A stretch of DNA of 64,000 nt, from assembly GCA_021295655.1 (NCBI GenBank), contig JAGWBX010000047.1, positions 26,779 through 90,778 on the forward strand, given 5' to 3'. This DNA is from Candidatus Latescibacterota bacterium. Its GTDB lineage: Bacteria > Latescibacterota > UBA2968 > GCA-2709665. How positions within the stretch are numbered: position 1 is the stretch's first letter; every line of letters starts with the position of its first letter. Shown in pieces: positions 18,785-62,478 of the stretch. A program made the position numbers and the translations under genes. Below the pieces are notes generated by a model. That model made no database searches. It was not told the DNA's origin and was given only the letters and a program-made list of their open reading frames with translations.

Positions 18785-19099
18785 ATGAATGTGTTTTGCT
18801 CGGTGTATGCCTCATTGCCTTCTGACAGCGAAGTTGGATTGAACTGGATGATAAAGCTCGTGCCCAACCTGCTCGCAGCCGGGGCCTCAGAACAGGAGCT
18901 CGTTGCAGTTCTTCTGACCGATCCCTCGAAATCCCGTGCGTTGGCGCCGCTGATCGTCGCCCTTCGCGAGCGCCAGGGCGAGACGGTTCGCGCGCCAGCG
19001 GAAGTTCGGGAGGTAGCCGCTGACGTGAGAGAACGCATCGAAAAACGAGTAAGCCATTGGTCAAAAGCGACGGCGGGTTCCTGTGGAGGTGGATTATGA
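18785..19099 (+). CDS. Hypothetical protein (weak call)
   Basis: 104-aa ORF in an otherwise gene-poor 1-kb stretch. Non-repetitive composition but no recognisable motif. Confidence 0.2.
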   Translation: MNVFCSVYASLPSDSEVGLNWMIKLVPNLLAAGASEQELVAVLLTDPSKSRALAPLIVALRERQGETVRAPAEVREVAADVRERIEKRVSHWSKATAGSCGGGL

Positions 19100-33366: not shown

Positions 33367-33604
33367 ACGGACCATAGCGATCCACTGTGCCGGATGCCGG
33401 ACGCTGCTTTACAAATATCTAAAAGGCGGAAGGGGCGGCCTGGTCAAGTGTTTCGTGGAACGGATCGTGAGTGATTTCACCCGCGGAGACCTGAAGTGTC
33501 CGGAGTGCGGGCAGACATTTGCGCGTGAACGGGTAATCAGCGGGCGGCCCGTCCACAAGATCATCCAGGGCAAGGTGTATACCAGGGGGATGTCGAGAAA
33601 GTAA
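33341..33604 (+). CDS. Small zinc-ribbon protein (two CxxC pairs)
   Basis: 87-aa ORF with CAGC...CPEC. It overlaps the PhyH gene end by 26 nt. No family recognised. Confidence 0.4.
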   Translation: MASRNRVDRRTIAIHCAGCRTLLYKYLKGGRGGLVKCFVERIVSDFTRGDLKCPECGQTFARERVISGRPVHKIIQGKVYTRGMSRK

Positions 33605-33652
33605 TCTTGATTCGGTATTTTTCCGGGACGTAAAATCGAATATAGGCAGGCG

Positions 33653-33803
33653 GATAAAGGCGATTTGACGGCTGATTACCAGGATACACCAGGTCCACTG
33701 GACGTGAGCTGAAAAAACGTCCTTTTTTAACGACCGTTTCGCCCCGTTTCAGGGATCTTCGTTGCGTTGCCGAGTTGCTGTTGTTTATCGAATTGGGGGT
33801 AAT
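33653..33803 (+). repeat. ~150-nt conserved leader-like element, copy 1 (upstream of msrA)
   Basis: Near-identical to 62333-62478. Contains the hairpin GGACGT-N11-ACGTCC followed by a T-run. Ends 19 nt before the msrA ATG. Confidence 0.7.
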
Positions 33804-33821
33804 ATCAGTCAGGAGACGAAA

Positions 33822-34361
33822 ATGGCCGAAGAACGCGCGACGTTCGGAGGGGGATGTTTCTGGTGCGTGGAGGCGATTTATCAGGACCTGTCGGGGGTAT
33901 TGGAGGTGGTTTCCGGTTATGCGGGGGGGTCCGTTCCGAATCCGACCTATCAGGAGGTGTGTCATGAAACCACGGGGCATGCCGAGGTGGTGCAGATCCG
34001 ATTCGAACCGGAGACGGTTTCCTACAGGGACATGCTGGACGTGTTCTGGCGCACCCATGATCGGACGACACTGAACCGCCAGGGTGCGGACGTGGGCACG
34101 CAGTACAGGTCCGTGATTTTCTATCACAATGAGCAACAGCGGGCTGAGGCGACACAATCCCTGGCCGAGACGGATGCGTCGGCATTGTGGGCGGATCCTA
34201 TCGTTACCGAGATTACGCCCCTGACCGAGTTCTACCGGGCCGAGGATTACCATCAGAACTACTATCGTTCGAATCGCGCCCAACCCTACTGCATCTTTGT
34301 GATCGACCCGAAGATGCAGGGGTTCAGGGAGGCATTTCAGGGACGATTGAAGACCGGGTAA
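33822..34361 (+). CDS. msrA: Peptide-methionine (S)-S-oxide reductase
   Basis: Active-site motif FGGGCFWC and GHAEVVQI. The ATG at 33822 follows AGGAG. Confidence 0.95.
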   Translation: MAEERATFGGGCFWCVEAIYQDLSGVLEVVSGYAGGSVPNPTYQEVCHETTGHAEVVQIRFEPETVSYRDMLDVFWRTHDRTTLNRQGADVGTQYRSVIFYHNEQQRAEATQSLAETDASALWADPIVTEITPLTEFYRAEDYHQNYYRSNRAQPYCIFVIDPKMQGFREAFQGRLKTG

Positions 34362-61684: not shown

Positions 61685-62044
61685 GGGGGCGACCTGGATT
61701 CGACGGGGGTGGAGAGGCGATGGCTGCGTGTCGAGGTCCCATGTCCTCGTTAAACTGTGGGAACACGATATAATTGCGGACGATACGTACGCAATGGCTG
61801 CGTAACTAAAACGCAGTCCGTTCTGACGGGCTTCGCCTGCAGGGCCCGACCGGAGCGCCGACTTATGCGGGCTGGCTCGTGGACCTCCGTTCGAGGGTCC
61901 GTGAGCGAGAGCTTATCGAACTGGCGCGTTGGCAACCCCGTTTACCGGGGCGCCCGCGCGTGAGATTCAAAAGGTAAACTACACACGTAGACGCTGTCGT
62001 TGATTTGCTTTCGGACGCGGGTTCGATTCCCGCCGCCTCCACCA
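61685..62044 (+). ncRNA. ssrA: tmRNA (SsrA)
   Basis: The 5' end GGGGGCGACCTGGATTCGACGGGG and the 3' end GGACGCGGGTTCGATTCCCGCCGCCTCCACCA form the tRNA-like domain. The internal tag ORF GCG GAC GAT ACG TAC GCA ATG GCT GCG TAA encodes ADDTYAMAA. Confidence 0.95.
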
Positions 62045-62332
62045 ATTGAAGGAACCCGATCCGGGCCACTCTCCCGCGATGAGAGGGGAGGCGAGGAAGT
62101 GGCCGTGCAAACACCTTCCTGCACCGGCTTTGGTCGTATGGGAAACACCCTCTCGTCGCTTGCCAGGCGCCCCTCGCCGGCAAATCACGGTCATTTGTTC
62201 GAATCTTTCCCTCCATCGATACACCCCTATCCAGTCCGGCCGTTTATCTGCCGATTCGAGAATGCCGTGCATCGTGCGGATTCGCCTCTACCCTATGCGC
62301 CGATTCCGTCGCGTGGACCAGATCCACGGGTA

Positions 62333-62478
62333 GATAAAGGCGATTTAACTTCTGGTTACCAGGATACACCAGGTCACCGGACGTGAACTGAAAAAACGTC
62401 CTTTTGGACGACCGTTACGCCCCGCTTCAGGGGTTTTCCTCGCGTCGCCGAGTTGCTGTTTTTCGAATTGGGGTTAAT
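62333..62478 (+). repeat. ~150-nt conserved leader-like element, copy 2 (upstream of octaheme cytochrome gene)
   Basis: Collinear with 33653-33803 (GATAAAGGCGATTT...TTACCAGGATACACCAGGTC...GGACGTGA.CTGAAAAAACGTCCTTTT...GCCGAGTTGCTGTT...CGAATTGGGG.TAAT). Confidence 0.7.

Follow-up and report, generated by a model that had tools for sequence, protein, structure and literature searches.

A repeat found ahead of both msrA and a multi-haem cytochrome gene in an uncultured Latescibacterota genome very probably belongs to an abundant, genus-wide MITE family

In the stretch of 64,000 nucleotides of a Candidatus Latescibacterota genome that was analysed here (the window), the regions upstream of msrA and of a multi-haem cytochrome gene share a sequence that is very probably a MITE, a non-autonomous DNA transposon, and the two loci hold two of its about 135 copies. 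The shared sequence is ordinary selfish DNA and defines no msrA-cytochrome regulon. The repeat family, its terminal inverted repeats (TIRs), the target-site duplication (TSD), the empty site and the random orientation of the copies were all observed in the genomes of the genus. The element encodes nothing, indicating that it must be moved in trans.

The two window copies, at 33653-33803 and 62333-62478, lie on the same strand and are collinear and about 85% identical (BLAST E = 1e-41), a similarity far above chance, and the shared stretch on which the original prediction was built is therefore real. The parts that it had listed are present in both copies, namely the tandem ACCAGG..ACCAGG block, the GGACGT-N11-ACGTCC hairpin followed by a T-run, the CCCC/GGGG hairpin, and the tail GCCGAGTTGCTGTT...CGAATTGGGG. 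The spacing to the start codons had also been given correctly: the msrA ATG (33822) is 19 nt away, and that of the cytochrome gene (62536) about 58 nt. The extent of copy 1 needed revision: the stretch itself stood, but a start at 33653 was too late, as homology to the family begins about 50 nt further 5ʹ, at 33605. The left end of this copy is TCTTGATTCG (consensus CCTTGATTCG) and its right end is CGAATTGGGG, and the ribosome-binding site of msrA, AGGAG, lies downstream of the right GTAA copy. Copy 2 is without the first ~50 nt of the element (the 5ʹ module), and its left target-site copy is lost together with this truncated 5ʹ part. The coordinates of the features are collected in Table 1. 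A third copy is located about 1.5 kb past the end of the window (C37:92345-92522).

Table 1. Coordinates of the element copies in the window and of the features around them
Feature	Position	Strand	Basis or remark
Conserved upstream ORF, 125 aa	33227-33604	+	No Pfam family
Left target-site duplication, GTAA	33601..33604	+	Single GTAA (or GTGA/GTAG) in empty-site relatives
MITE copy 1, full-length core, 194 bp	33605..33798	+	nhmmer profile positions 7-211, E = 1.4e-60
ACCAGGATACACCAGG, within the most conserved block of the family	33678..33693	+	Per-column conservation, 177 copies
GGACGT-N11-ACGTCC hairpin and T-run; terminator-like on the + strand only	33700..33728	+	Sequence; rejected by the terminator scan
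Right target-site duplication, GTAA	33799..33802	+	19 nt before the msrA ATG (33822)
MITE copy 2, 5ʹ-truncated, right end CGAATTGGGG intact	~62326..62473	+	nhmmer ~51-211, E = 2.3e-53
TTAA, right target-site copy of MITE copy 2	62474..62477	+	Sequence; family-wide TSD pattern

A search of the whole genome showed that the similarity extends well beyond the msrA and cytochrome loci. The window's own genome (G000) is a 4.61-Mb draft in 104 contigs. An initial search of it yielded 41 scored copies among 120 candidates, BLAST gave 115 matches, and an nhmmer profile made from 75 flanked copies gave 135 matches, 79 of which were full-length. Several copies were found at contig ends of the draft assembly, indicating that the true copy number is above this count. 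In four sponge metagenome or holobiont runs, the summed word depth increased within the element from ~14 to ~1,100, and contigs ran into the element from both unique flanks. The rise in word depth is compatible with roughly 80-100 MITE copies per genome.

When the 75 flanked copies were aligned, column conservation dropped to background beyond a block of about 200 nt. The full element has a core of about 190 bp, with a modal length of 190-191 bp, and this core is non-coding, as no conserved ORF was found across the copies. The core starts with CCTTGATTCG and finishes with CGAATTGGGG, forming imperfect 10-bp TIRs in which 7 of the 10 positions make Watson-Crick pairs as DNA and all 10 pair when G-T pairs are permitted. 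Both ends are about 90% conserved across copies. The flanking tetramers co-varied between copies and were identical in 35 of 72 pairs, whereas shuffled sets averaged 16 and never exceeded 23; no duplication signal was detected in the 72 copies at lengths other than 4 bp. Matching pairs were TTAA/TTAA (19) and CTAA/CTAA (7), followed by TCAA, TTAG, and TTGA, with CTGA/CTGA, TTCA/TTCA, TAGA/TAGA, and GTAA/GTAA as rare cases. The element is accordingly bounded by a 4-bp TSD, with a target preference of TTAA > CTAA > other YTAR-like tetramers.

The ~50-nt 5ʹ module was also found alone or in tandem elsewhere in the genome. The solo 5ʹ modules and the copies without the module, window copy 2 included, indicate that the element is modular. 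In G000, solo modules of about 70 nt were seen directly upstream of full copies, and there was also a tandem layout in which two full copies have one TTAA in common; the tandem sites are C53:10722-11116, C20:9460-9531, C2:133385-133456, C33:11006-11077, and C80:54671-54743.

Conservation within the element is uneven. The central block GATTACCAGGATACACCAGGTCACTGGACGTG (window 33670-33705, core positions 70-100) had a column identity of about 96%, compared to an element mean of 85.5% over 177 copies, and it was more conserved than the TIRs. In the window's own genome, the copies had a median identity of 91% to the consensus and of 85% to each other, and the best pair reached 97.4%; judged by this divergence, they are middle-aged. 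Near-identical pairs (99.5%) were present in some relatives. Two of these results weigh on the MITE reading: the median and best-pair identities do not imply current activity in G000, and a central block that is better conserved than the termini is not accounted for by simple neutral decay among dead copies.

We looked for the msrA locus in each of the other 14 congeneric genomes and then aligned the junctions. An exact empty site was found in eight relatives (G002, G004, G006, G007, G008, G009, G010, and G011), in which the junction reads ...gatgtcgagaaaGTAAtatcagtcaggag...ATG(msrA) (also given as ...gagaaaGTAAtatcag...), whereas the occupied junction in the window and in G003 reads ...gagaaaGTAA[element]GTAAtatcagtc.... 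Comparison of the empty and occupied junctions indicates that the insertion was exact and is bounded by a duplicated tetramer. The ribosome-binding site of msrA is the same in the eight relatives without the element. In G014, a diverged copy was present at the orthologous site, and it had decayed within the ACCAGG block. The tetramer of the relatives is GTAA, GTGA, or GTAG and is in frame with the conserved upstream ORF, indicating that it is the stop codon of this ORF and has been kept by the duplication; in the window, the TAA of the left GTAA is this stop codon. The ORF carries a CPECG zinc-ribbon-like motif, lies directly upstream of msrA genus-wide, and may be an operon partner of msrA, the product of which gave a PMSR match (E = 9e-67). 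The gap between the ORF and msrA is 17 nt in the empty genomes and 217 nt with the element. Copy 1 thus landed on the stop codon of the upstream ORF, splitting the operon-like junction of the relatives.

Window copy 2 lies in the spacer between the tmRNA gene (61685-62044) and the multi-haem cytochrome gene and is missing from the corresponding spacer of G003, G004, G005, and G009. A clean empty site was not obtained for this copy, as the tmRNA-cytochrome spacer is too variable among the relatives. Copy 2 is thus a 5ʹ-truncated copy within a fast-evolving spacer. The sequence downstream of the tmRNA gene (window 62045-62325) was unalignable between species of the genus. The locus fits a picture in which the 3ʹ end of the tmRNA is a hotspot of insertion and turnover.

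Across the genome, in which genes were called with a rough codon-model caller, about 90% of the MITE matches were intergenic. Their orientation was random, with 42 sense and 41 antisense copies in co-directional spacers, and convergent and divergent spacers held 14 and 13 copies, respectively, so further copies do not always stand before genes in the sense orientation. The element abutted a gene stop codon with its 5ʹ end in 14 cases and with its 3ʹ end in 12. Although the gene calls were crude, a called stop codon was found at an end of 24 of the 72 full copies, compared to 11% of the YTAR sites outside gene bodies (binomial P = 7e-7). The target contains TAA, TAG, or TGA, which the duplication regenerates. 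Since the TSD rebuilds the stop, an insertion exactly on a stop codon leaves the gene intact.

The original prediction had offered three readings, of which two were regulatory: a leader acting in cis as a riboswitch or attenuator, and an operator or promoter common to both genes, either of which would define a small regulon of msrA and the cytochrome gene. Both window copies do precede a gene in sense orientation, with the hairpin and U-run on that strand, but the 135 genome-wide matches, with sense and antisense copies nearly equal in number, and the eight relatives that have msrA and its ribosome-binding site without the element argue against any such regulon. The RNA evidence points the same way. 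A search of the whole window against Rfam at the gathering threshold returned only the tmRNA, and a search with the element at E <= 1 returned nothing. The consensus folded no better than shuffles (z = -0.9 for sense and 0.0 for antisense), and RNAalifold gave no consensus structure. Among 177 distinct copies from the own genome and the relatives, compensatory changes in the GGACGT-N11-ACGTCC hairpin, the CCCC/GGGG hairpin, and the terminal stem did not rise above shuffle level, and a single pair of the CCCC/GGGG hairpin was disrupted in 83 of these copies. A manual helix test detected no covariation of the GGCGAT/GTCGCC helix, and the helix of the 5ʹ module gave a weak signal (8 compensatory cells vs 2.2) that may be one inherited change. 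A terminator scan of 33400-34000 found no terminator-like site; the GGACGT hairpin, which has a stem of 6 bp, was rejected on account of its 11-nt loop. The search for a multi-copy insert interrupting copies at this hairpin met with heterogeneous breakpoints and unrelated junctions, and there were no split copies in this assembly. With copies scattered in random orientation in the manner of a MITE, which speaks against a leader or operator, we consider a shared msrA and cytochrome regulon extremely improbable. The third reading, a small mobile element, was borne out by the TIRs, the 4-bp TSD, the precise empty site in eight relatives, and the MITE-like distribution. Another way to account for an intergenic, abundant, and hairpin-containing element with a modular architecture, in which the 5ʹ module occurs alone or in tandem, would be a host-maintained palindromic repeat of the REP/BIME type, which recombination or a Y1 transposase of the RAYT type would move or maintain, as opposed to a DDE MITE. 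REP elements, however, have no TIRs with TSDs, in contrast to the 4-bp duplication and precise empty site observed here, and they measure 20-40 bp against ~190 bp, which leaves this account with next to no probability. It is conceivable, if unlikely, that the element is a MITE with some co-opted, Correia-like copies, with msrA uncoupled by the sense hairpin and U-run or re-driven by a weak promoter-like site, and with the ACCAGG-N5-ACCAGG block as a putative protein-binding site. The insertion splits the 17-nt junction of two co-oriented genes, the occupied state is common to G000, G003, and (diverged) G014, a promoter-like site (TTGATT-18-TAAAAT, 33607-33636) is the sole such match and lies within the 5ʹ end of copy 1, and the central block is exceptionally conserved. 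Nevertheless, the copies show no orientation bias and the hairpins no covariation, the orthologous copy of G014 has decayed in the very block that would bind the protein, and constraints on a master copy alone can yield uneven conservation. Side effects of copy 1 on msrA transcription are possible.

An autonomous element with identical ends was not found in this draft genome, which counts against the MITE reading in part, and the MITE-like end pairs 0.3-4 kb apart in the own genome were all chance pairs across ordinary genes. The CC-initial ends and the 4-bp duplication led us to consider the IS1380 family, transposases of which (NF033539) occur in 12 of the 15 congeneric genomes and reach 36 matches in a single genome. 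Upon defining the ends and duplications of these elements by comparing copy pairs, we found that all eight subgroups make 4-bp TTAG/CTAA/TTAA/CTAG duplications. The subgroup with transposases of 495-511 aa has the ends CCTCAATGCGAAAATAATG and CCTCAATGTGAAATAAATC, the former of which is identical to the reverse-complemented right end of the MITE, CCCCAATTCGAAAAAAACAG, at 14 of 20 positions (P ~3e-4 with random CC-initial 20-mers and 9e-4 with shuffling), and the same subgroup is also the best match to the left end of the MITE (11/20). An IS1380 IS of the 495-aa type was present at five contig ends of G000 (C29:1-558, C10:1-181, C79:1-155, C95:1-81, and C60:107566-107647); it is a multi-copy IS collapsed at contig ends, and the draft assembly under-represents ISs. 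ISEcp1 mobilises adjacent DNA via loosely matching alternative ends. As IS1380-family elements more generally use such ends when mobilising adjacent DNA (TMos, PMC3281130), cross-mobilisation of the MITE is plausible. From the likeness of the ends, we lean towards an IS1380-family transposase as the best candidate for the mobilising enzyme. Against it, the likeness covers the outermost 17-20 nt only: when the 100-nt ends were aligned locally, scores past the last ~17 nt did not exceed those of shuffles. Moreover, the copy number of IS1380 does not track MITE abundance across genomes: MITEs are numerous in G008, G010, and G014, where no IS1380 match was found, whereas G007 has 36 IS1380 matches and few MITEs. 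Both points speak against a simple parent-offspring relation, and the first gives no sign that the MITE arose from such an IS by internal deletion. BLAST of the MITE against the IS1380 loci was uninformative. The same MITE might instead be moved by an IS5-group or IS1182-type transposase (DUF772 + DDE). A 4-bp YTAR duplication is the classical signature of the IS5 group, the TSD of the MITE is of this type, and DUF772-type transposases occur in 10 of the 15 genomes, G000 included. However, the ends of these ISs in the genus (GAGCCTGTCGGA..., GAGTCTGCGCC..., and CAGCCTGTTGAAAAAG...) are unlike CCTTGATTCG or CCCCAATTCG, and one of them, CAGCCTGTTGAAAAAG, corresponds instead to a second palindromic repeat family of ~90 nt. 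The IS1380 elements of the genus, in turn, demonstrably leave 4-bp duplications (TTAG/CTAA/TTAA), and their CC-initial ends agree with those of the MITE at up to 14/20 positions. We therefore regard an IS5-type partner as unlikely.

The second repeat family is ~90 nt long, palindromic, and TTAA-bounded, and reads TTAACAGYCCGTTGAWAAAG...CTTTTTCAACGGGCTGTTAA (G000, C30 ~18880-18978). It often has a TTAA in common with the 190-bp MITE, abutting MITEs at C64:24548, C1:127145, and C103:70067 and adjoining C103:20614, and its ends match those of an IS5-type (DUF772) IS in G001 that has the ends CAGCCTGTTGAAAAAG.

The MITE family is present in every one of the other 14 congeneric genomes, with 12 to 189 candidates each, and it was detected in none of 26 genomes outside the genus (other genera of the family and order). 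When exact words were sought in a single genome of each species, nearly all matches were to uncultured Candidatus Latescibacterota MAGs, some of them deposited as 'Gemmatimonadota' RHO bins, and the sequencing runs that contain the locus were sponge and reef metagenomes. Single occurrences of the 18-mer TACCAGGATACACCAGGT were also seen in a few genomes of Streptococcus infantis/mitis and Prolixibacteraceae (loci L114, L125, L127, and L140), and these matches are probably due to chance.

The element resembles the known bacterial MITEs, such as Correia/NEMIS of Neisseria, RUP of Streptococcus pneumoniae, and Nezha of cyanobacteria, which are likewise short (about 100-300 bp) and non-coding, have TIRs and a short TSD of fixed length, are present in tens to hundreds of intergenic copies with insertion polymorphism among relatives, and contain internal hairpins that may resemble terminators. 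It differs from them in that it is unrelated in sequence, a third of its copies lie exactly on stop codons, and its host is an uncultured Latescibacterota genus, for which we found no MITE literature. The target is a YTAR tetranucleotide here, whereas that of Correia elements is TA. With the IS1380 family (IS1380, IS1247, and ISEcp1), the MITE has in common the CC-initial ends, short imperfect inverted repeats, and a duplication of 4-5 bp; IS1247, for example, is 1,672 bp long with IR 16/13 and a DR of 5 bp (PMC3281130). Unlike these ISs, however, the MITE carries no transposase, and the sequence that it has in common with the IS is limited to the last 17-20 nt. No literature linking a MITE family to IS1380 was found in the papers searchable here. 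ISs of the IS5 group and their MITEs likewise duplicate 4 bp of YTAR-type targets, but the IS5/IS1182-type ends in the genus are unlike those of the element. That all the suggested parts hold jointly, so that this would be the first recognised MITE driven by IS1380, preferring stop codons, with sense copies that insulate or re-drive transcription in a Correia-like manner and with ACCAGG-N5-ACCAGG as a putative site for a host or transposase protein, we judge to be improbable.

These results remove a false lead from the annotation, as there is no msrA-cytochrome regulon and no new riboswitch here. They document a MITE family that is abundant throughout a genus of uncultured, sponge-associated Latescibacterota, a lineage in which apparently no mobile-element biology had been described before, and the family explains assembly breaks, many copies lying at contig ends. 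With its YTAR target and duplication, the element is an example of how selfish DNA can persist in compact genomes by settling on stop codons without harm to the genes. If the link to IS1380 is confirmed, the element would be a MITE partner for a family whose best-known role is the mobilisation of resistance genes by loose recognition of ends.
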